DNA of 64,000 bases from Candidatus Thorarchaeota archaeon (GCA_038893995.1 JAWAQK010000002.1:20529-84528), one strand, 5' to 3'; counted from the stretch's first letter, positions 2-57,850 are shown. Numbers and translations are program-made. The notes: generated from the letters alone by a model not told the origin.

Positions 2-673
2 CGAATATCGATAGTTGGGGTTGGCAGAGAGATCCCTCTCCATGATCCTACTCTTCTTGACTCCAGTACTCTCAGTACTCTTCAGAGGAACATGATCAGG
101 TTCGAACCGTACTCATCCCAGCAGCTCTATGACATACTGAATGCCAGAGCTAAGATTGCGTTTCAACCAGGTGCCGTGATGGATGAAACCTTACAGCTGA
201 TATGCGACATCGCCTCGGAACACGGAGATGCAAGATATGCAATCGAACTGCTATGGCGCGCTGGCAAGCAGGCCGAACGTGAAAGGTCTGATAGAGTTGT
301 ACCTGATCATGTACGACTAGCTAAATCCGACATTCACCCAGAGATACGAAAAGAGGTCATCACCACGCTCCCTCTTCAGCTGAAGCTGCTGTTACTGGCA
401 ATCGCTCGACAGCTGAGAGAAACTCGCAATGCATATGTGACGATCGGTGAGGTGGAAGACATGTACAGGAGTGTTTGCGAGGAATATGGCGAAGAGCCTC
501 GTACACACACACAGATTTGGACGTGGGTCCAGGATCTTGGTGCACAGGACATCATTGAGGCAAAACGATCCAGTGTGGGCAGAAGAGGACAAACCACGCT
601 CATAGGTCTCTCTGAAGTTCCTGCAGAGATGTTGGAAGAATGTCTCCTTGAACTCATCGAGAAGGATGGATGA
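2..673 (+). CDS. cdc6: Orc1/Cdc6 replication initiator, C-terminal part (5' end outside window)
   Basis: Frame is open from the window edge. The lid/winged-helix region (IRFEPYSSQQLYDILNARA ... TQIWTWVQDLGAQDIIEAK) is typical of the archaeal Orc1/Cdc6 C-terminus. Confidence 0.8.
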   Translation, partial: RISIVGVGREIPLHDPTLLDSSTLSTLQRNMIRFEPYSSQQLYDILNARAKIAFQPGAVMDETLQLICDIASEHGDARYAIELLWRAGKQAERERSDRVVPDHVRLAKSDIHPEIRKEVITTLPLQLKLLLLAIARQLRETRNAYVTIGEVEDMYRSVCEEYGEEPRTHTQIWTWVQDLGAQDIIEAKRSSVGRRGQTTLIGLSEVPAEMLEECLLELIEKDG

Positions 674-962
674 AGTCATGGATACACATGGGAAAGACCG
701 GGTGTCGCTCGAACAGGTATTCTCTTCTAGAGGCAGGATCAAGATCATTAGGGAACTCGCCTTCTCAAACGAGCTAAACATATCAGAGATTTGCAAGAGA
801 GTGGGCCTCAACCACAGCACAACTAGGAGTCATCTTGATGTCCTCATTGCATCAGGCTTAATAGACGAAAAGATGTTTGGCCGAATCAAGATCTACAGAT
901 ACCGTCTCGAGGACATGCGTGCACGTTCACTCAAGAACCTGTTTGAGTTGTGGGAAGCATAG
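648..962 (+). CDS. ArsR/SmtB-family winged-helix transcriptional regulator (alternative starts at 666 or 678)
   Basis: 104 aa with an HTH signature: IIRELAFSNELNISEICKRVGLNHSTTRSHLDVLIASGLIDEKMFGRIKIYRL. Confidence 0.5.
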   Translation: MNSSRRMDEVMDTHGKDRVSLEQVFSSRGRIKIIRELAFSNELNISEICKRVGLNHSTTRSHLDVLIASGLIDEKMFGRIKIYRYRLEDMRARSLKNLFELWEA

Positions 963-1790
963 ATGCCATCGTATCTCTGCAGAGTGTTCTATCTGGGAAC
1001 CAACTACTATGGTTCACAGATTCAGCCCGGCTTACCCACCATACAGGGTGAATTGATAGACGCAATATCCCGCTGGAGTGGCGAAACGCATTCTGAAGAG
1101 TCTGTGAGGCTGGCCGGACGTACTGACAGAGGAGTACACAGCATAGGTCAACTTGTTCTAATAAGGACCGGTCTCCCCATATCGCTGAAAGAAATCAATA
1201 AACAACTACCAGACGATATCACCCTCTGGGCATTTCGTCAGGTTCCCTCAACCTATGAGCCTCGGTTTGAAGTTCTCCTGCGTCACTACTTGTACTGTCT
1301 AGAGATCTCTTCTCTCTCTCTTGACCTTGGGAGGATGTGCAATGCGGCCCGAATGTTGATTGGAACGCACGATTACTCTAGCCTGGCAAAACAAGATGGT
1401 AACAGACCAATGACTACTACTCTCCTGAACATCGATCTGTCCATTGCTGGCAATGTGCTGCTGATTGATGTCTATGGGACTGGCTTCCTCTGGAACCTCG
1501 TGCGTAGAATAGTGACCTTTCTCATGGATGTCGGAGTTGGTTTGCTCCCCGACGACGCCGCAAGGCTGATTCTAGATTCCTCCCCGCCCAGAAGATCTGG
1601 AAACAGGCCTTCCTACCCCGAAGGTCTGATTCTGGTTGAGTCTGCTGTTCCACTCTATCTAGCCCCGGATAAGGGGGCCATCAAGAGAATAAGAAAGACT
1701 ATCGCAACGAAGCTCGCCCTATACCAAAGATTATCGACTTCTCTAACCGTTGTAGATTGGATCACGTCAATGCAGCTTCTCATGGCTTGA
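963..1790 (+). CDS. truA: tRNA pseudouridine(38-40) synthase TruA/Pus1-like
   Basis: 275 aa with the catalytic motif AGRTDRGVHSIGQ (RTDxGVHA-type Asp motif). Confidence 0.75.
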   Translation: MPSYLCRVFYLGTNYYGSQIQPGLPTIQGELIDAISRWSGETHSEESVRLAGRTDRGVHSIGQLVLIRTGLPISLKEINKQLPDDITLWAFRQVPSTYEPRFEVLLRHYLYCLEISSLSLDLGRMCNAARMLIGTHDYSSLAKQDGNRPMTTTLLNIDLSIAGNVLLIDVYGTGFLWNLVRRIVTFLMDVGVGLLPDDAARLILDSSPPRRSGNRPSYPEGLILVESAVPLYLAPDKGAIKRIRKTIATKLALYQRLSTSLTVVDWITSMQLLMA

Positions 1791-2970
1791 CCCCGATCCA
1801 GTTCTGCATCAATTGTCCTTGACGCGGATTTCTCCGGACAATCTCTTTGATGACCCATAGAATCTCTGTTCTTGCTCGCGCATGAGAAATGCTTGCAGCT
1901 CTCGATATCATCTCGACCAGCAACTGTGTCTTCTCCAGTGCCTTTCCTCCCCTCCAGATCAATAACGGCCACTGCGGCTCAACATTCTCTACCTCTCTGT
2001 ATGGAGTTTCAGTCCTTGACCTCCCAACTCCGACCGAAATGAAATCGTATACATATCCCAGCATCTTCCAGTCTTGCCTTCTCATGATTCTTCCAAGCAC
2101 ATAGTCTGACAACGAGAGGGCGTCAAACCCACTTTCCAGTTCCTGTTCTGTGAGAAGGTACTTGCTGATGTTCTCTTCGAGCCATAGCACTAGCGTTTCA
2201 TGATCTACGTCTGTTTCCGCAACTGCCCTCCTCGCGCCATCAATGCTCGCAGCCATGAAAAGTCTCCTAATCGAACTAGAAACCCCGCGTAGGTGATCCC
2301 TGTCTGGTGGTTGCCATGTTTGACCATGATCAGACCTGCATGCAACCTCAAGGTCAAGAATGGCCGCTCTGAGGTCTCCTCCGGCTCTTTCTGCGATTGC
2401 CCTAAGGACTTCTTTCTCACACCTGGCGCCGCTTTCTCGCAAGACAACTGACAGGGCTTCCACTATCTTGTCCTCGGAAACTGGCTGGAATTGAAGGATC
2501 ATGCATTTCTTCTGGATAGCGTCAAAGCGTTTGTCCTCGATGTCATTTGCAGTCATTACTATAGGGTGCACTGCATGGTCAATGAGATCCTCGATTGCAC
2601 TTATTCCCCCTCTGTCGCTGGATCCTGAGATCCCATCGATCTCCTCGAGCAAGACAATTCTTCCCCTCCCATCGAGAGTTTCTTGTGTCGCTGATCTCCA
2701 GACCTGCGTTTCCACTACGGCCTTATTCCTGCTGTCGCTCGCATTGTACTCGACCAGTTCCAGGTTCAGGTCTCTCGAAAGTGCTACGACAGCTGATGTC
2801 TTTCCGATTCCTGGTCGTCCGACGAGTATTGCACCCCGATTCCTAGTGGTCTTCGGATCCCATCCTCTTACCCACTCGTAGAGCCTGTCGATCACTTCCT
2901 CATTTCCCACGAGGTCGCTCCGACACGTCGGCCTAAATCTCTCTGTCCACGGTTGGTCCACATTCGTCAT
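1780..2970 (-). CDS. rfcL: Replication factor C large subunit
   Basis: 396 aa, ERFRP...LVG, Walker A GRPGIGKTS, AAA+ clamp-loader architecture; adjacent to rfcS. Confidence 0.85.
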   Translation of the reverse strand: MTNVDQPWTERFRPTCRSDLVGNEEVIDRLYEWVRGWDPKTTRNRGAILVGRPGIGKTSAVVALSRDLNLELVEYNASDSRNKAVVETQVWRSATQETLDGRGRIVLLEEIDGISGSSDRGGISAIEDLIDHAVHPIVMTANDIEDKRFDAIQKKCMILQFQPVSEDKIVEALSVVLRESGARCEKEVLRAIAERAGGDLRAAILDLEVACRSDHGQTWQPPDRDHLRGVSSSIRRLFMAASIDGARRAVAETDVDHETLVLWLEENISKYLLTEQELESGFDALSLSDYVLGRIMRRQDWKMLGYVYDFISVGVGRSRTETPYREVENVEPQWPLLIWRGGKALEKTQLLVEMISRAASISHARARTEILWVIKEIVRRNPRQGQLMQNWIGVKP

Positions 2971-2973
2971 GTG

Positions 2974-3921
2974 CTATCTGTCTCCCATATGAACTAGAAG
3001 CGCAGTCATCTGGATCTCTCCATCCGCCCCCTCGGATATTCGAAACTCGGCCTCCGCAATTCGTTCGTAGATAGCAACCTGTTCCTTGGCTGACATACTC
3101 ATTTCCTCTACTATCCTGTGGACCTGACGGACCAAGTCATGGGGTGCTATCCCCTCTTGGTAGACCAAGTGTTTCATGATTTTCAATGCTTGTTCTAGTT
3201 TTCCGCCTTGCGACAATGTGATCATTTCCCTGATTGTGGCCGGGTCCGCCTGGCCCGAGATTGAATACACGATCTGACTGTTCAAAGTCTGCTTCAGTGA
3301 CGAGGCTGCCTGCAGCAGATTGATGGCTGCTCTCATGTCGCCCTCTGCAAGATAGAGAATTGCATCCATTCCTGTGTTGACAATCTTCACACCTTCGTTT
3401 TTGGCAATGAACTCTAAGCGCATTCGAATCACGTCGTCAGGGAGACGCGCAAATCGAAAGAGTGCACACCTAGACTGGATTGGTGGTATTATCTTGCTAG
3501 AGTAGTTACAAATCAGGATCATTCGACACGAATTTGCATGAGTTTCCATTGTCCTGCGCAGTGCATGCTGTGCGTCCGGCGTGAGATGGTCTGCCTCGTC
3601 CAGAACAAGTATCTTGAAGGGAGCATCCCCTGCCGGTACTGCACGCGCGAAATTTTTAACCTGATTCCGGACAACATCTATTCCTCTCTCATCGCTCGCG
3701 TTAAGCTCCATGAAGTTCTCATCAAAGGAGTCGCCAAAAAGATCCCGAGCCATTGCAATGGCCGCAGTTGTCTTGCTCGTACCTGGAGGTCCGCTAAATA
3801 GGCAGTGGGGGACGGCCTTTGCTTCCACAAAACTTCTTAGACTCTGAATGATGCTTTCCTGTCCCAAGATCTCCCTCAGTGTGCGTGGTCGGTACTTCTC
3901 GGTCCAAAGGCCCATGTCCAT
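2974..3921 (-). CDS. rfcS: Replication factor C small subunit
   Basis: 315 aa, EKYRP, Walker A GPPGTSKTT, Walker B VLDEAD, SRC motif (IQSRCALFRF). Confidence 0.9.
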   Translation of the reverse strand: MDMGLWTEKYRPRTLREILGQESIIQSLRSFVEAKAVPHCLFSGPPGTSKTTAAIAMARDLFGDSFDENFMELNASDERGIDVVRNQVKNFARAVPAGDAPFKILVLDEADHLTPDAQHALRRTMETHANSCRMILICNYSSKIIPPIQSRCALFRFARLPDDVIRMRLEFIAKNEGVKIVNTGMDAILYLAEGDMRAAINLLQAASSLKQTLNSQIVYSISGQADPATIREMITLSQGGKLEQALKIMKHLVYQEGIAPHDLVRQVHRIVEEMSMSAKEQVAIYERIAEAEFRISEGADGEIQMTALLVHMGDR

Positions 3922-4008
3922 TTCACATCACTCGTCCGCGGGACTCGCACTTAGAAACACCCTCAAAAATAGTTTCACATACTCTCAAAATCGAGGTGCA
4001 AACAAGAT

Positions 4009-4570
4009 GATGTCCCCCCTCTTCGCCGCCCAGGTCGCTGAGCGCGTGCAGATGCTCTTCAACAATGATTTTCGTTCATGTCAGTTCTCAAGGCCACTCC
4101 CCTCCATGAAACTGGGTGACCGTACAATCGGTCCCTTCGATGCCGGGAGCAGGGCTGAACTCCCTAATTGGATGATTGATATCCTGATCAGGAATGGTGT
4201 GGTCGAGTTGATGCCCGAAGATGCACTTGAGTCATCCATGAGAGTCAATAGTGCTAACGATCGTGAGAAGAGAGAGCCCGCTCTGCAGTCTGTCTGGCCA
4301 TACCTCTACTCTGCACTGAGATCCAAGATGCACCGGCTATCGCGCGACGCCTCCGAAATGGATCCGAAGACACATTCGGATCTTCAGACCACTAAGAAGA
4401 ACTTTGAGTCACTCTTGGAGAACCGGCTTACAAAGATCTTGCGGGTAGCCAAGTCCGGTTTCTACCAAGATAAGCTCAAGTTGATGACCTACGAAGAACA
4501 GTGGCTTTGCAAATCCATTGCGGACGTCATTACACGTTGGCGTGTAGCAGTATTGTCGTCTCGACCTTAG
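4009..4570 (+). CDS. GINS complex subunit (Gins51/Sld5-Psf1-like); ORF-track start at 3848 overlaps rfcS and is less likely
   Basis: About 187 aa. An A-domain-like helix with ELPNWMIDILIRNGVVEL (the LPxW(L/M)a..L...G motif of GINS subunits). Sits immediately upstream of mcm, as in many archaea. Confidence 0.5.
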
Positions 4571-4635
4571 CACTGCCGCTTATATACGGACATGACAAAC
4601 TAATACTTGCTCGACAGGTCTTCTCTGAGGCGAAT

Positions 4636-6711
4636 CCTATGGCTCTAGCAGACAACAGTTTGCAGTTGCGATTTGAGGACTTCCTTCGAAGCTACAAGGA
4701 TGAACATGGCACTCCCATATACTGGGTAAGAGTCCAGAACATGCCTATAGAGGGATCTACATCACTGACAGTGGACTTTCAGGAACTGGCCAGTTTCGAT
4801 AACGAATTCGCTAGGATTGCGAGAGAAGACCCCGACTTGATGTTGCTTCACTGTAATCGAGCATTGCTTGACGTCCTATCTCGTGAGGACCCAGACTACG
4901 TGAGTTCTCTCAGAGACAAAGACCTCCTTCGTATACGTATTGTCAACTACCCCGAGTACACTCCACTTCGTGCCATCAGATCCAAACACATTGGCAAACT
5001 CATCTACATCCGCGGGATCATGATGAGGGCCAGTGAAGTGAAACCCCTGCTAAGAGAGGCCCTGTTCCAGTGCAGGGTGTGCAAGCATGAATGGCATGAA
5101 CCTCAAGAAGAGGGCCGATATACTGAACCTCTGACATGCCCTGTGTGTAATGTGAAGACTCCTGTCCGTCTGATTCCCGAGAAGTCATATTTCACAGACT
5201 GGCAGAAGGTCCGAATACAAGAAACACCCGAGGAGCTTCCCCCAGGCCAGATGCCCAGGTCGCTTGATGTCATACTCGAGGGTGACATAGTTGACACATC
5301 TAGACCTGGAGACCTGGTGAAGATCTGTGGAATCTTGAGGACGTCTCCTGATTTCTCACGTAAGGGCAGCCGTCTGGCCACATTTAATGTCTACGTCGAA
5401 GCAAATGGCATTGAGATTGGCGAGAAAGAGTACGAAGAGCTAGAGATAAGCCCTGATGACGTGAAACAGATCGAGGAACTCTCACGCGATCCGTACGTTC
5501 ACCAAAGAATCTATGCATCGATCGCGCCGTCGATACAGGGATATGAACGTGTGAAGGAATCGATTGCGTTACTTCTGTTTGGTGGAGTCGGAAAGGTGTT
5601 GCCAGACGGGACTCGATTGAGGGGACGCTCGAATATACTCATGATTGGAGACCCGGGCACAGGCAAGAGCCAGATACTCAAGTTTATTGCAGGACTGGCA
5701 TCCAGGGGTCTGTACACCTCAGGCAAAGGCACCACAGCAGCAGGTTTGACGGCGGCCGTGATCCATGATACAGAAACGGGAGCAATGACTCTTGAGGCTG
5801 GAGCACTGGTACTGGCAGACCAGGGCATAGCTTGTATTGACGAGTTTGACAAGATGGATCCAGACGATAGAACTGCAATTCACGAGGCAATGGAACAACA
5901 TACAGTGAGTATCGCAAAGGCCGGGATTGTTGCCACACTCAATGCCCGGACCTCTATTCTTGCAGCAGCAAATCCCACACTGGGACGCTACGAACCCTCT
6001 CTTTCTCTTCAAGACAATATTCGGCTTCCATTCACGATCCTATCTCGGTTCGATCTAATATGGGTCATGATTGACACTGTTGAATCCACCAAGGACAGAG
6101 AGCTGGCTCGTTTCATCCTGACAATGCACCAGAGTCAGCGGACCCCTGACCAGAAGAGTGCTCCTCCAATTCCTCCCTCCCTGCTGAAGAAATACATCCG
6201 TCATGCAAGCAGGTTGAACCCACAGCTTACACCAGAGGCCGCTGAGGTCATTGAGAACTTCTACGTTGATCTACGAAAAACAGCGGAGGGCGGTGCCGGT
6301 CCGGTGCCGATAACTGCACGTCAATTGGAGTCTCTCGTGCGTTTAGCGGAGGCTCGTGCAAGAATGGCACTGAGGACAAAAGTCACCAAAGAGGACGCAC
6401 AAGCAGTGGTCAATCTGATGGAGGCATCTCTGCGGGATGTGGCCCTCGATCGTGTGACTGGCAAGATCGATATTGACACACTTGTTTCGAAGATGAGCGC
6501 TGCACAGAGGGGATCATCTGACATAATCCTCAAGGCCATGAAGGAGCTGGAGGCAGAGGGCTCCTCGACTGTGAGTGAAGAGGCGCTAGTGCAACGTGCA
6601 GCTCAGATGGGACTCTCTGTCGAACGCGCCCAAGAGGTGATCAAGAAGTTGCTTCAGGAAGGGATTCTATTCAACCCTCGAGAGGGGAAGATCAAGCGTG
6701 CACAGGGGTGA
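4636..6711 (+). CDS. mcm: MCM replicative helicase (alternative upstream start at 4501)
   Basis: Zinc finger CRVCKHEW...CPVCN, Walker A ILMIGDPGTGKSQ, Walker B CIDEFDKMD, arginine finger SRFDL, C-terminal winged helix; about 691 aa from 4636. Confidence 0.93.
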   Translation, partial: PMALADNSLQLRFEDFLRSYKDEHGTPIYWVRVQNMPIEGSTSLTVDFQELASFDNEFARIAREDPDLMLLHCNRALLDVLSREDPDYVSSLRDKDLLRIRIVNYPEYTPLRAIRSKHIGKLIYIRGIMMRASEVKPLLREALFQCRVCKHEWHEPQEEGRYTEPLTCPVCNVKTPVRLIPEKSYFTDWQKVRIQETPEELPPGQMPRSLDVILEGDIVDTSRPGDLVKICGILRTSPDFSRKGSRLATFNVYVEANGIEIGEKEYEELEISPDDVKQIEELSRDPYVHQRIYASIAPSIQGYERVKESIALLLFGGVGKVLPDGTRLRGRSNILMIGDPGTGKSQILKFIAGLASRGLYTSGKGTTAAGLTAAVIHDTETGAMTLEAGALVLADQGIACIDEFDKMDPDDRTAIHEAMEQHTVSIAKAGIVATLNARTSILAAANPTLGRYEPSLSLQDNIRLPFTILSRFDLIWVMIDTVESTKDRELARFILTMHQSQRTPDQKSAPPIPPSLLKKYIRHASRLNPQLTPEAAEVIENFYVDLRKTAEGGAGPVPITARQLESLVRLAEARARMALRTKVTKEDAQAVVNLMEASLRDVALDRVTGKIDIDTLVSKMSAAQRGSSDIILKAMKELEAEGSSTVSEEALVQRAAQMGLSVERAQEVIKKLLQEGILFNPREGKIKRAQG

Positions 6712-6726
6712 TCCGCCAACTTCCAA

Positions 6727-8958
6727 TTGACGGGGATGGTCAAGACGCTTGTAGGAGACCTTCCACTGAACCGAAGAGTCGTTGATGTTCTCAGAAACTT
6801 AGGTATCAATGAACTCTATCCTCCGCAAGAGCTCGCGTTTCGAAGCGGTGTCTTGGAGAGGAGAAACCTGGTACTATCCGCTCCCACAAGTTCAGGCAAG
6901 ACACTGGTTGCCGAGATATGTGCAGTTCACTCGATCCTGGAGCGTGGAGGCAAGGCCCTATACCTTGTTCCATTGAAATCTCTCGCGCGTGAGAAACTGT
7001 CGGAGTTTGCAAAGTACGAGTGTCTCGGGTTCTCCACAGTGGTTTCGGTCAGCGACTATGAGTCGTCACGACCAGAACTCGCAGATGCCGACATACTCAT
7101 TCTGACTAACGAGCGTGCTGACTCACTGATCCGTCAGAGGCCTGATTGGCTGAACGATGTCTCTGTGATGATTGCAGACGAGATTCACTTGGTTGGCGAC
7201 AAGACTCGTGGTCCAACGCTAGAGATGGTCATCGCTTGCATGAAACGTCTCTGTCAGGGCCTGCAGATCATAGCGCTCAGTGCAACAATACCCAATGTTG
7301 ATCAGATAGGTCGATGGCTAGATGCAGTTGTTGTCTCCAGTAACTGGAGACCTGTACCGCTTAGGGAAGGTGTACTGCTCGACAACGAGATCCACTACAG
7401 CGATTCATCAATCAGGGTCCTGACAGATACGGGTCGAACTGGCATAGAGAGTCTAATACAGACAGTCTTGAACGATGGTGGTCAAGTCTTGGTCTTTGTT
7501 TCGAGCCGTCGATCTGCAGTTTCACTTTCGAGAAGACTAGCTCCCTTGGCTGCATCACATCTGAGCGATGACGAACGCCATCAGCTATCCCTATATTCCA
7601 GAAGAATCAGTGTCGATGCATCTTCCCCTGTCTCCTCATCGGTTCTTCGCGAGATGATCGAACGTGGTTTGGCCTTTCATCATGCAGGACTATCAGATCG
7701 TGAGAGAGCAACAGTGGAGGATTGTTTCCGAAAACGTCTGCTAAAGATCATTGTTGCTACCCCTACACTTGCAGCAGGGGTCAATCTTCCGGCCCGCTGT
7801 GTCATAGTTCGTGATTACCGCCGCTTCGAGGATGGGTTGGGTAACAGACCTATCCCTGTATTGGAGTACAAGCAAATGGCTGGTAGGGCTGGCCGTCCGC
7901 TCTACGATACTTGTGGTGAAGGTATACTGATTGCACAGACCCCTGAGGAGCTCGATTTCCTTCATGACAACTATGTACTTGCTAATGCTGAGCCAACCGT
8001 TTCAAGGCTAAGGTCCACAAGGGCCCTTCGTTTTCATCTATTGGCCGCGATAGCTGGAGGGCTATCTAGAAACCTAGAGGAGATTCATGATCTTTTGGGC
8101 TATACCCTGTACTCTGTTCAGTTTCCCAGGCCTCGAATTGAAACAAGGCTGTCCCTAGCTCTGGAGTTCCTCGAACGCAAGGGCTTTGTGAAACACGAGT
8201 CTGGACAAATACTCCCCACATCCTTTGGACTTCGAACGTCTCGTCTCTACATCGATCCGCTGACAGCTGTCCTGTTCAGAAGTCGATTGCCAGACTCAGA
8301 TGACATTCCGGTCATTGGCCTCCTACATCTACTATGTCACACTCCAGATCAACCACTTGCGTATGTTTCACAGTCCGAGATCGATGAGTACTCCAATCTT
8401 CTCGAGTCATACATCGATGACCTCATTTTGAGCCCACCCTCTGAAGGCCCTCGATACTACCGATTTCTGTGCGAGTTGAAGACTGCATGCATACTTCACG
8501 ACTGGATATCCGAGAAGTCAGAACGCGAGATTACGGATCACTATAACATAGGAATGGGTGACGTCCATCGATATGTCGAGTCCACCCAGTGGCTGCTCTA
8601 CTCTGCAGGAGAGATTGCTCGTGTGCTAGGAATCCAAAAACCAGTGAAACTCCTACAAGAGATCCGACAACGCGTGAAGTACGGCGTCAATGCCGATCTT
8701 CTCGAGCTAGTTTCATTGAGGGGGGTGGGACGTGTCAGAGGGAGAATGCTGTACCAGCATGGACTGAAACGGCTTCAAGACCTATGTATGGCACCAGTTT
8801 CTCAGATAGCACGTGTACCGACTATCGGTCAATCACTGGCTGAATCCATAAAGCAGCAGCTGAGTGGTGTTGACAACCATGTCGGTTCACCGCCCCTAGA
8901 TGATGCCACTTTCGACAGCGACTACACAGGTCAGACTGTGCTCGATGACTTCGACTAG
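6727..8958 (+). CDS. hel308: Ski2-like DNA helicase Hel308/Hjm
   Basis: 743 aa with motif I APTSSGKT, DEIH box, motif VI QMAGRAGR, and the C-terminal ratchet/HhH region typical of Hel308. Confidence 0.88.
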   Translation: MTGMVKTLVGDLPLNRRVVDVLRNLGINELYPPQELAFRSGVLERRNLVLSAPTSSGKTLVAEICAVHSILERGGKALYLVPLKSLAREKLSEFAKYECLGFSTVVSVSDYESSRPELADADILILTNERADSLIRQRPDWLNDVSVMIADEIHLVGDKTRGPTLEMVIACMKRLCQGLQIIALSATIPNVDQIGRWLDAVVVSSNWRPVPLREGVLLDNEIHYSDSSIRVLTDTGRTGIESLIQTVLNDGGQVLVFVSSRRSAVSLSRRLAPLAASHLSDDERHQLSLYSRRISVDASSPVSSSVLREMIERGLAFHHAGLSDRERATVEDCFRKRLLKIIVATPTLAAGVNLPARCVIVRDYRRFEDGLGNRPIPVLEYKQMAGRAGRPLYDTCGEGILIAQTPEELDFLHDNYVLANAEPTVSRLRSTRALRFHLLAAIAGGLSRNLEEIHDLLGYTLYSVQFPRPRIETRLSLALEFLERKGFVKHESGQILPTSFGLRTSRLYIDPLTAVLFRSRLPDSDDIPVIGLLHLLCHTPDQPLAYVSQSEIDEYSNLLESYIDDLILSPPSEGPRYYRFLCELKTACILHDWISEKSEREITDHYNIGMGDVHRYVESTQWLLYSAGEIARVLGIQKPVKLLQEIRQRVKYGVNADLLELVSLRGVGRVRGRMLYQHGLKRLQDLCMAPVSQIARVPTIGQSLAESIKQQLSGVDNHVGSPPLDDATFDSDYTGQTVLDDFD

Positions 8959-10010
8959 TCAAAGAACCAGTCGTGGAGCTTCCTTTCTACGTAGTCGGCC
9001 AGCCTATCGGTCTCCTCAATCCGACCACTGGTCTTCACATGCCCCTCATCATAGTCCGTTACATCTCTGCCTGTCAGTTCCTCGACTAGGTTCAGTGATG
9101 CCCGGGCCATGACGTCAAGGTTATACCCCCCTTCTAGAAAGAAGGCCACTCTTCCTCTTGAATGGCTCTTTGCAAGCCTGGTGATTCTACGATTCATGGC
9201 CGCTATTCCACGGAGAGATAGACCGAGGTTGGTCAGCGGATCATCGAAGTGGCAGTCAAATCCCGCCGACACCAGCACGAATTCTGGCTTGTATACCTCC
9301 CCAATGGGCTCGATCACTCTTTCGAAGAGCAACTCGTAGTCCCGGTCTCCTGCGCCAGGATGGAGTGGCAGATTCACGTTGTACCCCCTCCCCTTTCCTT
9401 CGCCAATCTCGTCAGGATATCCAGTGCCGGGAAACAGCGTTCGTCCGTCCTGATGCAGTCCCACATAGAGCACTTGCTCTGTATCGTAGAATGCATTCTG
9501 AGTGCCGTTACCGTGGTGAGCATCGTAGTCTACTATCATTACCCGCTTGGTATCGAGCTCGTCTACCAGGTATTGTGCTGCCACAGCTATGTTGTTTATG
9601 AAACAGAAGCCGAGTGCTCTGCTCCTTTCAGCATGATGCCCGGGAGGTCTGCACATCACGTAGGCATTGTTACTAGCGTCTTGTCGGATCCTTTTGACCG
9701 CTTCTATACCTCCGCTCGCTGCGAGGAGCGCCGCCTCGTACGTATACGGGTTCCCCGCTGTGTCAGGTGTGAAGTATCCCCCTCCCATCTTCGACATTCT
9801 TTCTAGGCTCTGCAGATAGTCCTTACCATGAATTCGCAGCAGCGGTCGAGTGTCTGGCAGAGTTGGAGTCAACAACCTGACTTCCCGCTCCAGTAGGCCC
9901 GCCTCTCGGATCGTTTCGAGGCTTCTCTGGACCCTCTCCGGCCGTTCAGGATGACCGTGAGATATAACATGTTTGAGAAACATCTCATGGAAGACCAAAT
10001 CAGTGACCAT
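8955..10010 (-). CDS. Histone deacetylase-family protein (HDAC/AcuC/acetylpolyamine amidohydrolase-like)
   Basis: 351 aa with the HDAC signature PPGHHA, DYDAHHGNGTQ and FLEGGYN. Confidence 0.8.
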   Translation of the reverse strand: MVTDLVFHEMFLKHVISHGHPERPERVQRSLETIREAGLLEREVRLLTPTLPDTRPLLRIHGKDYLQSLERMSKMGGGYFTPDTAGNPYTYEAALLAASGGIEAVKRIRQDASNNAYVMCRPPGHHAERSRALGFCFINNIAVAAQYLVDELDTKRVMIVDYDAHHGNGTQNAFYDTEQVLYVGLHQDGRTLFPGTGYPDEIGEGKGRGYNVNLPLHPGAGDRDYELLFERVIEPIGEVYKPEFVLVSAGFDCHFDDPLTNLGLSLRGIAAMNRRITRLAKSHSRGRVAFFLEGGYNLDVMARASLNLVEELTGRDVTDYDEGHVKTSGRIEETDRLADYVERKLHDWFFD

Positions 10011-10096
10011 TCTCTACTCTCCTGGAACTCGGACCAGCATTTATCATACTCCTGTGACAACCTTTATTTTTACTTACACATCGAATCACAACACGT

Positions 10097-10232
10097 GGGT
10101 CGGTAGTCTAGCTTGGTATGATACTTGCTTGGGGTGGCCTGTTATTAGTTAGGGCCTCCAATATGCAAGAGGACGGGCGTTCAAGACCGCATGCGACTCA
10201 CGCATGCTCTGGAATTCGCCCCCGGCCCACCA
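10097..10232 (+). tRNA. tRNA-Pro(GGG) with two introns: 29 nt at position 37/38 and 30 nt inside the T-loop
   Basis: Acceptor GGGTCGG pairs with CCGGCCC, then A and an encoded CCA. Anticodon stem CTTGC/GCAAG is perfect; the loop TTGGGG is interrupted by a 29-nt insert containing a GGCC...GGCC hairpin. T-stem GGGCG/CGCCC flanks TTC[30 nt]AATT; the insert holds a 7-bp palindrome GCATGCG-ACTCA-CGCATGC. Confidence 0.6.
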
Positions 10233-10331: not shown

Positions 10332-10437
10332 GCCGGGGTGTCCCAGCGGCTACGGAGGCGGTCTCGAAGCCATTCAGATGCGGCGATAGAACCGCTGTGC
10401 TTTGCACTCGTGGGTTCGAGTCCCATCCCCGGCGCCA
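10332..10437 (+). tRNA. tRNA-Ser(CGA), class II, with a 21-nt anticodon-loop intron
   Basis: Acceptor GCCGGGG/CCCCGGC plus G and an encoded CCA. Anticodon stem GCGGT/ACCGC, loop CTCGAA, then a 21-nt insert. Long variable arm GTGC-TTT-GCAC. T-arm GTGGG-TTCGAGT-CCCAT. Confidence 0.8.
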
Positions 10438-11015: not shown

Positions 11016-11160
11016 TGGCGGGCGCGCCAGGATTTGAACCTGGGACATCTTGCTTGCTTCAAGTGACCGTAGAAGACCATTCAAGGATCACAGACCGAAG
11101 GCAAGCGCCCTATTGGCTCTTCGAGGACAATGTCCCGAATCCAAACTAGACTACGCGCCC
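11016..11160 (-). tRNA. tRNA-Arg(TCG), probable, with about 70 nt of insertions: about 25 nt next to the D-stem/position 26 and about 40 nt at 37/38
   Basis: Minus-strand acceptor GGGCGCG/CGCGCCC with G and an encoded CCA. Intact T-arm CCAGG-TTCAAAT-CCTGG. Anticodon stem CTTGC/GCAAG with loop CTTCGG interrupted by about 40 nt. A second insert lies between D-stem 3' strand GGAC and the anticodon stem. Confidence 0.55.
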
Positions 11161-21841: not shown

Positions 21842-21972
21842 TGGCGGGCTCGGCGGGATTTGCTCCAATACCGAGACACGCTCGGTCCGATTGAACCCGC
21901 AACCCTCAGGTGTCTCTCTCGGTTTCCCTTGAGATAAAAGCCTGCTGCGCTGCCTGGTTGCGCCACGAGCCC
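21842..21972 (-). tRNA. tRNA-Lys(TTT) with two introns: about 23 nt at 37/38 and about 31 nt in the T-loop
   Basis: Acceptor GGGCTCG/CGAGCCC with G and an encoded CCA. D-arm GCGC-AACCAGGCA-GCGC. Anticodon stem GCAGG and loop CTTTTA, then an insert with a TCTC...GAGA hairpin. T-stem GCGGG/CCCGC flanks TTCAA[about 31 nt]AT. Confidence 0.6.
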
Positions 21973-22291: not shown

Positions 22292-22427
22292 GCCCCTGTG
22301 GTGTAGTCCGGCTAGCATACTAGACTGTCACACTTGGTTGACAGGTGTCCCAAGGGCTAGTCTGGTAACCCGGGTTCAAATTGGGTTGTGGTAAGCACAT
22401 CCCATGAAGGTCCCGGCGGGGGCGCCA
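22292..22427 (+). tRNA. tRNA with two insertions: about 25 nt in the anticodon loop and 30 nt in the T-loop. Anticodon is tentatively CAC (Val)
   Basis: Acceptor GCCCCTG/CGGGGGC (one G-U pair) with G and an encoded CCA. T-stem CCGGG/CCCGG flanks TTCAAAT[30 nt]. Best anticodon arm is AGACT-GTCACA-[25 nt]-T-AGTCT. The D-loop is long and the variable loop would be 6 nt, so the isotype is uncertain. Confidence 0.45.
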
Positions 22428-22438
22428 TCTTCTTTTCG
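22428..22438 (+). terminator. Oligo-T tract after the tRNA
   Basis: TCTTCTTTTCG immediately after the CCA end. Confidence 0.35.
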
Positions 22439-22656
22439 TCCTCTCAGGCTTGTGAACATATGTGAGGGATTCGGTGTGCTTCTCTTCTGGCTATCTGGTG
22501 AGCTTTGGGGACGTTCCCTATTGGCTATATCACTCTCGGACAAGTTTTCCTCTGGCACCTATTCGACGTGTTTGCCATGCCAGTGTTGATCCTTGTTCTG
22601 TGCTGTATCTAGTCACAACGTTTATGTGGAGTTCAGTATCGTTCCTCCTTCGAAGC

Positions 22657-22793
22657 GCCGGGATTTCCTAGCCTGGACGACTCTATGTGTCGGGGCAATA
22701 TGGAGCCAGCCTGCTAAGTTGGTGTGCTTGCACGCGAGGGTTCAAATGGCATCTGCACAGGCCGGATGCCTGAAACTCCCTCTCCCGGCGCCA
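22657..22793 (+). tRNA. tRNA-Ser(GCT), class II, with two introns: about 23 nt in the D-loop and 30 nt in the T-loop
   Basis: Acceptor GCCGGGA/TCCCGGC with G and an encoded CCA. D-arm TCC-TAGCCTGGAC[insert]GGA-G parallels the Ser(CGA) gene. Anticodon arm CCAGC-CTGCTAA-GTTGG. Variable arm GTGC-TT-GCAC. T-stem GAGGG/CCCTC flanks TTCAAAT[30 nt, hairpin GGCATC/GATGCC]. Confidence 0.6.
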
Positions 22794-23195
22794 TGACTCC
22801 ATTGTCGGGCCATTCTCTGTTTCTGAGTGTGACGCTCACGAGTTCATATCTTGAGGTTGGATTCTGCTAGATCTCTTCTACCACGACTCTGTTGACGTGA
22901 TTCTAGGCATTGGCTGCTGAGGTCCCTACATCGCCGGAATCCCGATGCCATGACTTATTCAATCTAGTAAGATTGTACGATTAGGGTGTCGAGTATGGAG
23001 TCGAGAACATGATCTGTCCAACCCTGTGATGTGAGATGTACCAATCCTTCCGACTGAGTCAGAGGGTGTATCACTAGACCGTTCCCATTTGCCACGCAAA
23101 TTCAGTAGCGAGTGGGGTGATGCGGTTCCCGAAACCTGCTGCCTGTAACTGCTGCCATAGAACAGAAAAGAATCGGACTCGGGCCACTCGCCCGG

Positions 23196-27849: not shown

Positions 27850-28326
27850 TCACACCACTGACTTCGACTGACCGACGCCTGTCTTATGACTCACGTAATC
27901 CGCGTAGGCCCTTCGTGCAAGATCATTAGCTCGCATATTCTCCTCTCTAGGTATCCATCTGATTTCGATCTCGATGCCTCTCCTGCTAAGCTCTCCAATC
28001 AGTTGCTTCAGTCTGCTGTGCAGAGGTCCAATCCTCTTGGACTTGACTGCATATTCCCCCCTGATCTGTCTTATCACCAACTGACTGTCTCCACGTATGA
28101 CCACACGGTCCCCCTCACCTACTAGAGGCGCGACCGCCTCCAGCGCGCTGATGAGACCTGAGTACTCTGCCACGTTATTTGTCATATCGGATCCTTCCCC
28201 CACAATACCACCAGCAGAGGCTATTTCCACTCCACTCTCTATCACCGTATATCCCCAGCTTGCCACTCCTCCTGGGTTGACAGGCTCACATGCCCCATCG
28301 AAACTAATGTGGAAGACCCTTGACAT
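27850..28326 (-). CDS. rnhA: Ribonuclease H (RNase HI-like, RVT_3 family); ORF-track start at 28359 is also possible
   Basis: FDGA ... NNVAEYSGLISALE ... GDSQLVIRQI ... WIPREENMRANDLA carry the DEDD catalytic residues of type-1 RNase H. Confidence 0.7.
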   Translation of the reverse strand: MSRVFHISFDGACEPVNPGGVASWGYTVIESGVEIASAGGIVGEGSDMTNNVAEYSGLISALEAVAPLVGEGDRVVIRGDSQLVIRQIRGEYAVKSKRIGPLHSRLKQLIGELSRRGIEIEIRWIPREENMRANDLARRAYADYVSHKTGVGQSKSVV

Positions 28327-28378
28327 CTGACATACCCTCTTCTGTCTACGCATTCTCACAAGTATTCGGCAAGTAGGT

Positions 28379-33467: not shown

Positions 33468-33965
33468 ATGACGCAGTACATCAAAGTTGCCCTTATGGGC
33501 TCTGGATATGCGGGAAAGTCCACGCTGATTAAGCTATTGACTGACACGCCCGCCAGGCTCGACGGCAATTACAAACCTACAGCCGGAATGGACTGTGGGA
33601 CCATCACACTCGATGGCGGAACAAAGATAACGTTAGTTGAAATGGGTGGTCAGAGCCATTTCGAGTTCCTATGGCCAGACTTCCTGCAAGGCAGTAGTAT
33701 GGTCGTGGTCGTCACCGAGAGCACCCCCAAGGCTGTCCTGAAAACCCGTCAACTGCTTGAGAGCTACAAGGACCATCTTGCTGGGCGTCAAGTAGTTGCA
33801 ATAGCTAACAAGCAAGACCTGCCAGGCTCGATGAAACCAGAGTCTGTACAAGATCTTCTGGGTGTCCCTACCTACGGCATGGTCGCGATAGACCCCAAAC
33901 AGAGAATGCAGGGCTACAAGGTATTGATCGAAGGTCTTAGAGGTCTGGTCCAAGTGGCAGGCTAG
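33468..33965 (+). CDS. Small Ras-superfamily GTPase (Arf/Sar/Rab-like)
   Basis: 165 aa with P-loop GSGYAGKST, switch I T in DCGT, DxxG as EMGGQ, and NKQD (ANKQDL). Confidence 0.7.
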   Translation: MTQYIKVALMGSGYAGKSTLIKLLTDTPARLDGNYKPTAGMDCGTITLDGGTKITLVEMGGQSHFEFLWPDFLQGSSMVVVVTESTPKAVLKTRQLLESYKDHLAGRQVVAIANKQDLPGSMKPESVQDLLGVPTYGMVAIDPKQRMQGYKVLIEGLRGLVQVAG

Positions 33966-43702: not shown

Positions 43703-46519
43703 CTACCAGAAACCCCGTGTCCTGGCGTATTGCTCTTCTGCTGCAGCAATTGCCCTAAGTAACGAGACTCTGTCCATTCTGCTAGGCGACAATATCCTGG
43801 ATGCCATAGTCGGCCCGATGCCCCTTCCAGCTAGGACCATGACTGCCCTCTTGCCGTACTCAGCCACTAGCTGAGCAGTAAGATCCATCTGTCGTACTAG
43901 CCTATTCGACGAAACCCTGTTCCGACGACCATCATAGGTACTATCCTTCTGGTCCCCCCTCCGGATCTTGAATACAGATATCATCCTTGATAGGCAGGTC
44001 GGGCACGTCACGATTTCGTCCAGTGAGTAGACCTTACGAACTGCGCTCCAGCTGCAGTTTCGGCACTGGAGCCGGAGTTCTGTGGATAGAAGCCTTCGCT
44101 CGAGCAGGGCGAGGATCTCTTCTTCCTCCAGGGTTTCGCCAACCAGTTCAAACCTGGACCTCCCTTCGACTATCGACTGTGCAAGTGGGGACATTGACGC
44201 TGGAATCACGATTTGAAATTGTATTCTGCCATTCCTGCAGTCTTCGAGGAACTCAATCACGCGTTTCTCATCCGTTTTCTGAAAGAGGACCTCGTTGAGT
44301 GCCTCATCGAACACGGGCGTGTTTCTCAGCAATCTGATAAGATTTCTTGCTACGTTCGAGCTAGCCTCCGGTTCTATGACGCCCATTCTCTTGGCAACTT
44401 GTGCAAATCTGGACAGAAACGCATCTGTATTCTTTAGAGCCAACCGCAGCAGTGTTCTTGTCTGTGCAGCTTCAAGCCCTTTGAGCACGCATTCAATCTC
44501 GGAAGGGTCAATGTGCTGAGAGGTAGAGAGTAGTATCCTGTATGGATCGCTCTCCATTCCTATGTCAATCCCATGTCTTGTGGACAGAAGAGCAGACAGC
44601 AGCAGGCCAAGTGTCTCATTGGCCCTTGTTCCCAGAGGCACATGAACAACGAGCCCCATACTTGTGCTCTCGATGACGACGCGCTTGACAGATGGAATCA
44701 CGCCAAGTATATGCATGCTAGCGTCGATGCACTGTATCACATACTCTGCTGCTTCCTTAGTCAGCCGATATCGTTTCTCTAGCCATTTGCAAGCCCTCTT
44801 CTTTGTCATGGTTGCGACGTGATTCCAAACGGAAGACACTTCGACAGCCACCTCATAAGGAACTGGAATCATCTCTCCCGTCCATCGCGGAGGCGCAGTA
44901 TCAGTACTGACTGCAGGTCTGCATAGTACCTCCTCATCTATGCTGACGACATCGTACGTCCTACCTGCAATCACAAGGCTCGTACCTGCCGCCACATTGG
45001 TCTTGACATACTCCTCATCGAGGACTCCTACAGTTCTCCTTGTCAGTATGTCCAATACTGGTACTTGTCTGACATCGGGTATTGTTCCCAGATGTTCGTA
45101 GTAGAACTTCCTTGTCCTCCTCGTGGCTGCAACACGGTCTCCAATAACTGAGATCAGAGATCTCCGCTTCATGAACTCTATGAGACGCTCGATGTGTGAT
45201 CTGTTGAACATCCTGAACGGACATGTTTCCCTTGTCATCTCAAGCAGCTCGGTCAAGCTCACACTCCCGGAATCCAAGACAGCACCACATATCTGATGGC
45301 AGAGGACATCCCACGATTCCATCGGTATCTCGACATGCTCGACCTTGTTCAGAATTGCTCTCCGCACAATTACACCTGACTCAGTCACATCATCGAGGTT
45401 CATTGTTGCGATGACAACACCCTCTGCAGCACCCCCTACCCGATGAGATGCTCTCCCTGCCCTCTGCAATTCCCTTGATACATTACGTGGACTGCTATAC
45501 TGTACCACGAGGTCCGCCTGGCCTATGTCTATTCCTAGCTCCAGACTGGAAGTAGCTATCATTGCTTTGCAAGAGCCATTCTTGAACTCGTCTTCTGCCT
45601 CAAGCCGTTCGGACTTCGAGAGAGAGCCATGATGGACTCTGAGCTTGAGTGACGGATCGATTACCCTCATCTTAAGACCTAGTAGTTCAGCAAACGATCG
45701 CGTGTTGGTGAATATCAATGTCGAACTGTGTGTGTTTATCAGATCTAGGATCCTCTTCAGTCGCGCCACGTTGTATGGTGAGACCTTGATCTCCCGAGCA
45801 ATCCTCATGTCTTCGTCATCTGGCACGGGCATCTCAACCCGTAGAATCATCCGTCGTGATTCAAATCCTCCCCAGATGATTCTGACGTACTGATCCGTTC
45901 CGCCCAACCATCCAGCAACAGTCCTGGGGTTACCAACAGTGGCCGAGAGTCCTATGCGCTGAATTCGTGAACCGGCTATTCTCTCAAGTCTCTCCAGACC
46001 GAGACTGAGCTGTACACCTCTCTTGCTACCGGCCAGTTCGTGTACCTCATCAATCACGGCCGTTCGTACGTTTCTGATGTGCATCTGCATTCTCGGAGCA
46101 GGGATGATCGCCTGTAGTGTTTCGGGAGTGAGGATCAGCAGGTCTGGTGGATTCTCCAATTGCTTCTTGCGGAAGTGTTGTGATGTGTCTCCGTGACGTA
46201 CACTCACACTCAGACCAACATGGGTACAGATTCTCTCGATGCGCTCGAGCAGATCCCTGTTCAGCGCACGAAGTGGGGTTATGTATAGCAGCCTCACGCC
46301 GCCTGAAGAACGATCGTCAGTCTGTTCTAACATCTTACTTAACAGTGGAAGCAGTGCTGCCTCCGTCTTTCCAGATCCCGTGGGAGCTACGATCAGGAAG
46401 TTATCTCTGGACCGAAGAATCTCGGGTATTGCTGCTACCTGAATTGGAGTTGGTTCGACTATTCCTCTATCTGCTAGGACTTCTCTTATCCGATCATGCA
46501 ACAGCTCAAACACATTCAT
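43703..46519 (-). CDS. lhr: Lhr-family large ATP-dependent helicase
   Basis: 938 aa with APTGSGKTEAA, DEVHE and QRAGRA superfamily-2 motifs, plus the long C-terminal Lhr-specific domains. Confidence 0.85.
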   Translation of the reverse strand: MNVFELLHDRIREVLADRGIVEPTPIQVAAIPEILRSRDNFLIVAPTGSGKTEAALLPLLSKMLEQTDDRSSGGVRLLYITPLRALNRDLLERIERICTHVGLSVSVRHGDTSQHFRKKQLENPPDLLILTPETLQAIIPAPRMQMHIRNVRTAVIDEVHELAGSKRGVQLSLGLERLERIAGSRIQRIGLSATVGNPRTVAGWLGGTDQYVRIIWGGFESRRMILRVEMPVPDDEDMRIAREIKVSPYNVARLKRILDLINTHSSTLIFTNTRSFAELLGLKMRVIDPSLKLRVHHGSLSKSERLEAEDEFKNGSCKAMIATSSLELGIDIGQADLVVQYSSPRNVSRELQRAGRASHRVGGAAEGVVIATMNLDDVTESGVIVRRAILNKVEHVEIPMESWDVLCHQICGAVLDSGSVSLTELLEMTRETCPFRMFNRSHIERLIEFMKRRSLISVIGDRVAATRRTRKFYYEHLGTIPDVRQVPVLDILTRRTVGVLDEEYVKTNVAAGTSLVIAGRTYDVVSIDEEVLCRPAVSTDTAPPRWTGEMIPVPYEVAVEVSSVWNHVATMTKKRACKWLEKRYRLTKEAAEYVIQCIDASMHILGVIPSVKRVVIESTSMGLVVHVPLGTRANETLGLLLSALLSTRHGIDIGMESDPYRILLSTSQHIDPSEIECVLKGLEAAQTRTLLRLALKNTDAFLSRFAQVAKRMGVIEPEASSNVARNLIRLLRNTPVFDEALNEVLFQKTDEKRVIEFLEDCRNGRIQFQIVIPASMSPLAQSIVEGRSRFELVGETLEEEEILALLERRLLSTELRLQCRNCSWSAVRKVYSLDEIVTCPTCLSRMISVFKIRRGDQKDSTYDGRRNRVSSNRLVRQMDLTAQLVAEYGKRAVMVLAGRGIGPTMASRILSPSRMDRVSLLRAIAAAEEQYARTRGFW

Positions 46520-57502: not shown

Positions 57503-57571
57503 ACGAACGTATCCGAGCCTAAGAATTATAAGGCCTTCCCAGTGCACCCCACCAGGGTCGGTGAAGCAGCA

Positions 57572-57850
57572 ATGAAAGTGAGTTCATCCGTGAATCGGTA
57601 CTGTCCCAGATGCAGGGGATACAGAGAACACTCAACATCGATCTACAAGAAGGGAAAGGACCGATCCTTGTCCGCTGGCGCCCGAAGAATGAGGCGACGT
57701 ACCAAGGGTTACGGATCGTTTCCAAAACCAATTCAAAAACGTTTTTCGAAGACCACCAAGAAAGTTTCATTGAAGTATAAGTGCAAGGAATGTGGTTATC
57801 AAAGTCAGAAGAAAGGCATGCGTCTCAAGAAGGTCGAGATTGAGCGATAG
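57572..57850 (+). CDS. rpl44e: 50S ribosomal protein L44e (eL42); ORF-track start at 57542
   Basis: NRYCPRC...H..IYKKGK...KGYGS...KTTKK...KCKECG. Confidence 0.85.
   Translation: MKVSSSVNRYCPRCRGYREHSTSIYKKGKDRSLSAGARRMRRRTKGYGSFPKPIQKRFSKTTKKVSLKYKCKECGYQSQKKGMRLKKVEIER

Follow-up and report, generated by a model that had tools for sequence, protein, structure and literature searches.

A compact replication-gene island with orc1/cdc6, clamp-loader, Gins23, MCM and Hel308 genes in a Thorarchaeota-like Asgard archaeon

The cdc6-2 replication island of Saccharolobus solfataricus brings together the genes for RFC-s, RFC-l, Cdc6-2, Gins23 and MCM, and the MCM-Gins23 pair is one of two replication gene pairs that recur among archaea (Berthon et al. 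2008, PMC2643942). For the Asgard lineages, Extended Data Fig. 8 of a 2025 study sets out four main replication-gene clusters, with Cdc6 shown when it lies nearby, and the same source assigns Asgard GINS proteins to the GINS15 and GINS23 types (PMC12680538). Here we analysed a 64,000-nucleotide (nt) stretch of a Candidatus Thorarchaeota archaeon genome (GCA_038893995.1, JAWAQK010000002.1:20529-84528), hereafter the window, in which a block at positions 2-8958 carries an orc1/cdc6 gene together with genes for both clamp-loader subunits, a GINS subunit and two helicases. Among known organisms the Asgard archaea stand nearest to the eukaryotic host lineage, and we know of no origin or replication control circuit that has been mapped in them. 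Genes were called by listing open reading frames (ORFs) and by matching their products to Pfam and NCBIfam, which gave the following layout in window coordinates.

2-673, plus strand: orc1/cdc6, 3' part (223 codons and stop), start outside the window; Cdc6_lid 5.8e-25, Cdc6_C 4.8e-25
ATG 666 or ATG 678 to 962, plus strand: small ArsR-like winged-helix gene, 94-98 amino acids; HTH_5, 34.5 bits (cutoff 22)
963-1790, plus strand: truA, tRNA pseudouridine(38-40) synthase; TIGR00071, 154.2 bits (cutoff 142.85), and PseudoU_synth_1
1780-2970, minus strand: rfcL, clamp-loader large subunit, 396 amino acids; NF003229, 304.9 bits (cutoff 280)
2974-3921, minus strand: rfcS, clamp-loader small subunit, 315 amino acids; NF001679, 443.8 bits (cutoff 303), with Rep_fac_C and AAA
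3922-4006, no strand: rfcS/gins23 spacer of 85 nt, a putative divergent promoter region read from the sequence
4007-4570, plus strand: gins23, Psf2/Psf3-type GINS subunit, 187 amino acids; NCBIfam Gins23, structure matches and model
4639-6711, plus strand: mcm, replicative helicase, 690 amino acids, no intein; NF040949, 838 bits, and MCM Pfam domains
6736-8958, plus strand: hel308/hjm, Ski2-type fork-repair helicase, 740 amino acids, with an alternative TTG start at 6727; matches to solved Hel308 chains and Pfam domains
8955-10010, minus strand: histone-deacetylase-family gene with no replication role shown; Hist_deacetyl, 9.7e-92

This locus is likely to be a replication-gene island in the chromosome of a Thorarchaeota-like Asgard archaeon, made of three tightly packed units whose proximity would allow co-timed, balanced production of their products. 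A run of nine consecutive genes that includes six core replication genes is far above chance expectation, which we put by rough estimate at less than 1e-6, assuming about 25 such genes in about 3500, and the arrangement is met again in nine further loci. A first-pass annotation of the window had proposed cdc6, rfcL, rfcS, GINS, MCM and Hel308 genes within 9 kb, and ORF, Pfam and NCBIfam analysis recovered all six approximately where it had placed them, in the divergent layout that it described (rfcS-rfcL on the minus strand; gins23-mcm-hel308 on the plus strand) and with both the ArsR-like gene and truA, which match their profiles, lying between cdc6 and the rfc genes. Two of its details needed correction. 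The GINS start that it gave at 4009 is out of frame and yields 13 stop codons on translation, the ATG being at 4007; and the gaps that it gave as 16-65 nt measure 68 nt between gins23 and mcm and 24 nt between mcm and hel308 (15 nt with TTG 6727). For mcm we rejected a start at GTG 4501, as homology begins at residue 56 of that long ORF, and took ATG 4639 instead. Only three contigs, all short and from Logan, are identical to the window: L001 (8.2 kb, truA to the deacetylase gene), L002 (1.3 kb) and L015 (1.9 kb). The gene calls of L001, with a Gins23 of 187 and an MCM of 690 amino acids, match the corrected starts.

The first unit would comprise orc1/cdc6, the winged-helix gene and truA. The winged-helix start either overlaps the cdc6 stop (ATG 666) or trails it by 4 nt (ATG 678), and its stop abuts the truA start; because stops and starts overlap or abut in this way, the three genes probably form one transcript. 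The second unit would be rfcS-rfcL on the opposite strand, with rfcS upstream and a gap of 3 nt; its end converges on truA, with an 11-nt overlap between truA and rfcL. The third would be gins23-mcm-hel308, sharing with rfcS the 85-nt back-to-back promoter region, in which TATA-like boxes face both ways (CAAAAATAG toward gins23 and, on the minus strand, TTTCTAAG toward rfcS); the corresponding spacers of relatives hold semi-conserved TAAAAG boxes. At its far end hel308 converges with the histone-deacetylase-family gene, the two overlapping by 4 nt. Such clustering would allow a co-timed and balanced supply of the initiator Orc1, of MCM and Gins23 as components of the Cdc45-MCM-GINS complex, of the RFC clamp loader and of Hel308 as a fork-restart helicase, and the winged-helix protein may serve as a local regulator of the island. 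The same genes might also lie together through a historical accident of slow rearrangement, expressed independently and with no functional consequence. The 68-nt gins23-mcm gap fits that possibility: it holds a TATA-like GCTTATATACGG about 50 nt upstream of mcm and a GAGG 8 nt before the ATG, so that mcm apparently has its own TATA box. The cdc6-winged-helix-truA overlaps and the 3-nt rfcS-rfcL gap suggest co-transcription and speak against it.

The assignment of the individual replication proteins is for the most part straightforward. Both RFC subunits, encoded by adjacent genes, give equivalog-level matches above cutoff. The MCM protein passes the Pfam cutoffs for MCM_N, MCM_OB, MCM and MCM_lid, with MCM_WH_arc at 18.5 bits (cutoff 26.1), and its NF040949 score, slightly under the curated cutoff of 940, comes from an end-to-end alignment covering positions 3-681 of 682. 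Residues 6-710 of Hel308 match S. solfataricus Hel308 (2va8, 1.7e-147), Pyrococcus furiosus Hjm (2zj2) and Archaeoglobus fulgidus Hel308 (2p6r) with E-values of about 1e-145, and the full five-domain architecture is present (DEAD, Helicase_C, HTH_61, Helicase_dom4_arc and HHH_5); the NCBIfam equivalog scores lie under their naming cutoffs (770 vs 887 and 596 vs 1200). By eye only, the C-terminus of RfcL (QGQLMQNW) and the C-terminal QTVLDDFD of Hel308 each resemble a PCNA-binding motif. MCM inteins (Intein_splicing with LAGLIDADG_3 or HTH_3) occur in two of the related loci introduced below, at 10711-14388 in L012 and 14126-17767 in L016, and the window MCM has none.

The GINS subunit had been called by motif only, and here that call proved correct. 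The 4007-4570 product had no Pfam match. It did match NCBIfam Gins23 (8.3e-17, 61.5 bits, 134 of 159 model positions), under the naming cutoff of 120 bits. A HMMER search returned 98 homologues, and all 78 of the aligned ones match NCBIfam Gins23, the best at 9e-43. The profile of this family matches solved chains of S. solfataricus GINS (9moj_C, 1.3e-25), Thermococcus kodakarensis Gins23 (3anw_B, 2.3e-16) and human PSF2 (5e-15). An AlphaFold2 model made from the homologue alignment has a mean predicted local distance difference test score of 95.5 and places strands at residues 22-68 followed by helices at 77-184, that is, an N-terminal beta-rich B domain and then a helical A domain, which is the Psf2/Psf3/Gins23 order. 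Foldseek with this model returned GINS subunits only, led by 9moj_D/C, 2e9x_B (human Psf2) and 3anw_B, with probability 1.00 and TM-scores of 0.6-0.8. Because profile, solved-structure and Foldseek matches all lead to GINS, the absence of GINS homology that would have undone the call is not what was found, and the product is, on profile and model evidence, a Gins23/Psf2-type GINS subunit. It is 97% identical to a partial NCBI protein labelled Candidatus Thorarchaeota. GINS as a class is a 2:2 tetramer of Gins23 and Gins51/Gins15 that binds MCM; at this locus gins23 lies adjacent to mcm. Among the window ORFs scanned with Pfam we found no Gins51 gene.

We compared the block with related loci (L003 to L018), seven of which (L003, L004, L009, L010, L012, L013 and L017) have the same order and orientation, namely cdc6, winged-helix gene, truA, reversed rfcL-rfcS, gins23, mcm and hel308. 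Identity to the window in these seven is 61-69% for Cdc6, 69-77% for MCM and 32-40% for Gins23. A reversed deacetylase gene follows hel308 in six of them, L017 ending inside hel308, and is present in L016 as well. More distant is L006, a Joint Genome Institute metagenome contig (Cdc6 43% and MCM 46% identical to the window, and apparently more AT-rich), which has different flanks and an inverted truA and rfcS-rfcL segment and still keeps all eight genes adjacent; this points to a neighbourhood that has been retained, rather than to mere recent common ancestry. In L007 cdc6, the winged-helix gene, one further gene, truA and rfcS are kept in that order.

Several observations weigh against reading the block as a functional island. 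In L016 the island is without hel308, which is therefore not an obligatory member. Synteny among the Thorarchaeia loci runs far beyond the island, through POR, T2SSE-ATPase and TFIIB-like genes upstream and the deacetylase and LigT genes downstream, so that conservation among these loci may be general genome collinearity; independent support comes only from L006 and, in part, from L007. We also infer operon structure, promoters and co-regulation alike from sequence. The collinearity, together with truA and the deacetylase gene, which have no known replication role and are equally conserved in the block, is what an accident of slow rearrangement would predict. Against such an accident, L006 keeps its replication genes adjacent in spite of different flanks and flipped segments, and the same five genes are clustered in S. 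solfataricus, a member of a different phylum. We regard the accident as unlikely, and a functional island as the better account.

We judge it very improbable that the block instead belongs to an integrated plasmid or virus, as a replication module with its own cdc6 and mcm. Integrated elements in archaea do often carry extra copies of these two genes, and just upstream of cdc6 in L003 lie a TnpB-like remnant and a duplicated tRNA fragment. The window, on the other hand, shows neither an integrase nor a repeat border, and its composition does not shift (GC is 0.49-0.52 throughout); the block is flanked by operons for RNA polymerase and ribosomal proteins, occupies a conserved position in all relatives, and includes RFC, Gins23 and Hel308, which are not typical cargo. 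In the L003 sequence concerned (8600-9250), a TnpB-like zinc-finger remnant and an additional, intact copy of tRNA-Gly precede an intron-containing tRNA-Gly, an arrangement that looks like an old insertion at a tRNA.

The partial Cdc6 matches the NCBIfam ORC1-type model at 197 bits, and the domains present are the AAA+ lid and the C-terminal winged helix. Among solved chains, those of Pyrobaculum Cdc6 (1fnn, 6e-43) and S. solfataricus Cdc6-1 (2qby_A, 1e-31) match it best. In bits the ranking runs from 1fnn (199) through S. solfataricus Cdc6-1 (2qby_A, 168), Aeropyrum pernix ORC1 (2v1u, 139) and ORC2 (1w5s, 107) to S. solfataricus Cdc6-3 (2qby_B, 67), and on this ranking the window Cdc6 is of the Orc1-1 class, nearer to Cdc6-1/ORC1 than to Cdc6-2/ORC2. 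The contig L015, 100% identical to the window, reaches 432 nt further left, covers some of the N-terminal ATPase part and ends inside cdc6, about 100 nt short of the start as estimated from homologues of 401 amino acids. No Cdc6 more than 75% identical was found in the protein database, and scans of the genome and metagenome collections gave relatives of at most 65% only.

The small protein encoded directly after cdc6 matches HTH_5 above cutoff and, weakly (E of about 1e-3), the structures of HlyU, ArsR and BigR. It has a single cysteine and no CXC motif, and its NCBIfam HTH_metalloreg score of 40.3 lies under the cutoff of 55; because it lacks a metal-ligand motif and falls below that cutoff, we name it ArsR-like and not a metal sensor. 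Dozens of homologues labelled Thorarchaeota are 64-78% identical to it, and their annotations are generic ArsR or winged-helix names that give no role. On L018, a Heimdallarchaeota contig, the homologue directly after cdc6 is 57% identical to the window's and the Cdc6 there 50%. By these identities the winged-helix protein is conserved no less than Cdc6. The gene lies directly downstream of cdc6 in every locus from L003 to L018 in which the downstream side was examined, with the exception of L005 and L008, in whose available DNA a tblastn search detected no homologue. The pair is kept without the rest of the island in L011 and L018, and L007 keeps part of the island. The cdc6-adjacent homologues in the more distant loci are as follows.

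L018, 2961-3287: winged-helix homologue adjacent to cdc6
L011, 9558-9821: winged-helix homologue adjacent to cdc6
L007, 4593-4889: winged-helix homologue adjacent to cdc6
L006, 10677-10970: winged-helix homologue adjacent to cdc6

Every other component of the block has an assigned role, and the winged-helix protein may be put forward, purely as a hypothesis, as the best candidate for a local regulator or an Orc1 partner. The stronger proposal, that it is a dedicated partner or regulator of Orc1 in Asgard archaea, acting either as an origin-binding accessory factor or as a repressor that times the island, would be a long shot.

The first-pass annotation had also suggested that an origin lies immediately upstream of cdc6, just outside the window. 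The island would then mark a chromosomal origin, as at the Pyrococcus oriC and Sulfolobus oriC1, with its genes clustered near the place of replisome assembly. In favour of this, Cdc6 proteins of the Orc1-1 class are usually found beside origins; in addition, a limited literature search found no description of an Asgard origin, so Asgard origins may look different from those known. What we observed does not support the suggestion, neither the region upstream of cdc6 in relatives nor the window showing origin features. In seven relatives, the 220-440 nt upstream of cdc6 are fully occupied by a tRNA-Gly(CCC) gene, a C/D-box-like RNA gene and three promoters, in the order upstream-gene promoter, intron-containing tRNA-Gly(CCC), an RNA-like element of about 72 nt that has a separate TATA box, and finally the TATA box of cdc6, some 35 nt ahead of its ATG. 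Neither repeats like the origin recognition box (ORB) nor an AT-rich unwinding element was found upstream of cdc6 in the seven relatives read, though the Asgard ORB motif may differ. Up to 4 kb further upstream in relatives there are no repeats resembling ORB arrays and no AT peak. Within the window, the ORB core TTCCANTGGAAA, a canonical form that may not be that of Asgard archaea, has 22 matches against 16.6 expected, scattered through genes and without a cluster, and no 120-nt stretch exceeds 62% A+T. Because Asgard ORB motifs may differ from canonical ones, the absence of ORB features is weak evidence.

The GC skew of the window, proposed as a further check, shows no sign change and follows the coding strand. 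At third codon positions the skew has the same sign for genes of both strands, the plus strand being C-rich; the minus strand holds about 60% of the coding bases. This skew, together with the preference of the ribosomal and RNA polymerase operons for the minus strand, is opposite to what is usual for a rightward leading strand, and so weakly disfavours a fork that starts left of the window and moves right. Further origin candidates were rejected. The ATGACAT repeats upstream of cdc6 in L003 are poor initiator sites, since only 2 of about 5 copies are kept in L004, which is 89% identical overall; in L016 and L017, stretches of 2.3-2.4 kb that lie upstream of cdc6 and hold no called genes have no repeats and no AT peak; and the non-coding gaps of the window at 10.0-11.5 kb and 21.7-23.2 kb contain intron-bearing tRNA genes. 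We consider an adjacent origin to the left of the window possible and doubtful, and the same holds for the wider proposal that the island marks a chromosomal origin. The island is not by itself evidence for an adjacent origin; to our knowledge the cdc6-2 island of S. solfataricus, its nearest published analogue, is not origin-adjacent.

The tRNA genes in the two largest non-coding gaps of the window are stretched by introns to 103-142 nt. ARAGORN missed them, and Rfam found three, at or just above threshold; the last line below gives further probable genes recognized by eye only.

10332-10434, plus strand: intron-stretched tRNA gene
11019-11160, minus strand: intron-stretched tRNA gene
21845-21972, minus strand: intron-stretched tRNA gene
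About 10096-10190, 22294-22428 and 22655-22795: probable tRNA genes

The conserved element ahead of cdc6 in relatives is best read as a C/D-like RNA gene. Copies of 63-73 nt lie on the plus strand, 100-130 nt upstream of cdc6, in eight loci, and a covariance model found a further copy in L011.

L003, 9297-9368, plus strand: C/D-like RNA gene
L004, 295-366, plus strand: C/D-like RNA gene
L009, 9714-9785, plus strand: C/D-like RNA gene
L010, 9836-9907, plus strand: C/D-like RNA gene
L012, 5218-5290, plus strand: C/D-like RNA gene
L016, 8644-8715, plus strand: C/D-like RNA gene
L017, 8412-8484, plus strand: C/D-like RNA gene
L006, 9204-9266, plus strand: C/D-like RNA gene
L011, 12524-12589, minus strand: C/D-like RNA gene copy, 3 kb from cdc6 and on the opposite strand

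The copy in L013 is cut by the contig end, and the covariance model found none in the window. The RNA would fold with a 7-bp terminal stem and a covarying 3-bp internal hairpin (GUC/GAC, AUC/GAU or CGG/CCG). An xAU-GA on the 5' strand and a GA on the 3' strand are placed as in K-turns, and a second such pair surrounds an internal loop or hairpin; from GA to GA the distances are 16 and 17 nt, which corresponds to canonical guide spacers of 11-12 nt. In the alignment 94.9% of cells are paired, vs 27-48% with slid partners, and four pairs are changed on both sides. In the L011 copy the terminal stem differs (GUGGGC/GCCCAC) and the D' box is a canonical CUGA. Because this copy lies 3 kb from cdc6 on the other strand, the element would be an independent small RNA (sRNA) gene and not an origin element, which counts against an origin at this place. 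Neither an ORB nor a small ORF is a convincing reading of its conserved blocks UGACCCCGAUGA and GGAUCUUGAGU, and we rejected both: L003 and L006 differ in reading frame, the stems covary, and the L011 copy is away from cdc6. The element resembles archaeal box C/D sRNAs in its terminal stem, its two K-turn-type box pairs, its guide spacing and the CUGA D' box of L011. It differs from them in that its C/C' boxes are only xAUGA, not RUGAUGA, and its D box is xxGA, and a search of Rfam with it matched no family. We infer that the invariant 3' guide AGAUCUUGAGU would pair with ACUCAAGAUCU, apparently an anticodon loop CUCAAGA, which would place a predicted 2'-O-methylation at C34. A search for the predicted target in the sequences at hand gave chance matches inside genes only.

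Elsewhere in the window, the neighbours of the island include an rpoB-rpoA'-rpoA''-L30e-NusA-S12-S7 operon and the genes for EF-1alpha and aIF5B. The 64 kb are unusually rich in replication genes, as separate units. The following genes were noted in passing.

48898-50655, minus strand: multi-OB-fold RPA-like protein (Rep_fac-A_C, CDC24_OB3), divergent from PolD DP2 across a 132-nt spacer
50788-54378, plus strand: PolD DP2
43703-46519, minus strand: Lhr-type large helicase (DEAD, DEAD_assoc, WH_Lhr)
27850-28359, minus strand: RNase H-like gene
33468-33965, plus strand: small Arf/Roc/Ras-family GTPase gene, directly upstream of rpoD and ribosomal protein genes, typical of Asgard genomes
57542-57850, plus strand: ribosomal protein L44e
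58211-59011, plus strand: aIF-2alpha, close to L44e

In other archaea the L44E-S27E-aIF2alpha-Nop10 cluster is tied to PCNA-PriS-Gins15 (Berthon et al., PMC2643942); beside the L44e and aIF-2alpha genes of the window we saw no PCNA, PriS or Gins15 gene.

The locus adds little to existing knowledge of archaeal replication islands. It provides clean sequences with corrected starts for Asgard Gins23, MCM, RFC and Hel308, and two less ordinary leads: a candidate regulator in the winged-helix gene linked to cdc6, and the negative result on origin features, according to which a cdc6-adjacent position should not be assumed to be an origin in Asgard genomes. With respect to the Asgard clusters of PMC12680538, the text of that paper gives the Lokiarchaeales an rfcS3-rfcS2-rfcL operon, whereas the window has a single canonical rfcS beside rfcL. 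The Pyrococcus abyssi oriC island (cdc6, DP1, DP2, RFC-s and RFC-l) likewise clusters cdc6 with both RFC subunits (PMC2643942). That island contains the PolD genes and lies directly against a demonstrated origin with ORB repeats, whereas in the window no origin features were found, PolD DP2 lies about 42 kb away, and Gins23, MCM and Hel308 are inside the block. In the S. solfataricus island the same five core genes are packed into a few kb, with gins23 directly upstream of mcm and rfcS beside rfcL. That island differs in that the window Cdc6 is of the Orc1-1 class by sequence, not Orc1-2/Cdc6-2, that the window adds hel308 and, after cdc6, the conserved winged-helix gene and truA, and that the host is an Asgard archaeon and not a member of the Thermoproteota. 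The presence of an RFC-Gins23-MCM-Cdc6 neighbourhood in both Thorarchaeia and Saccharolobus fits an old arrangement shared with the Thermoproteota, and in the island of the window we see the Asgard equivalent of replication islands that have long been known from Saccharolobus and Pyrococcus.

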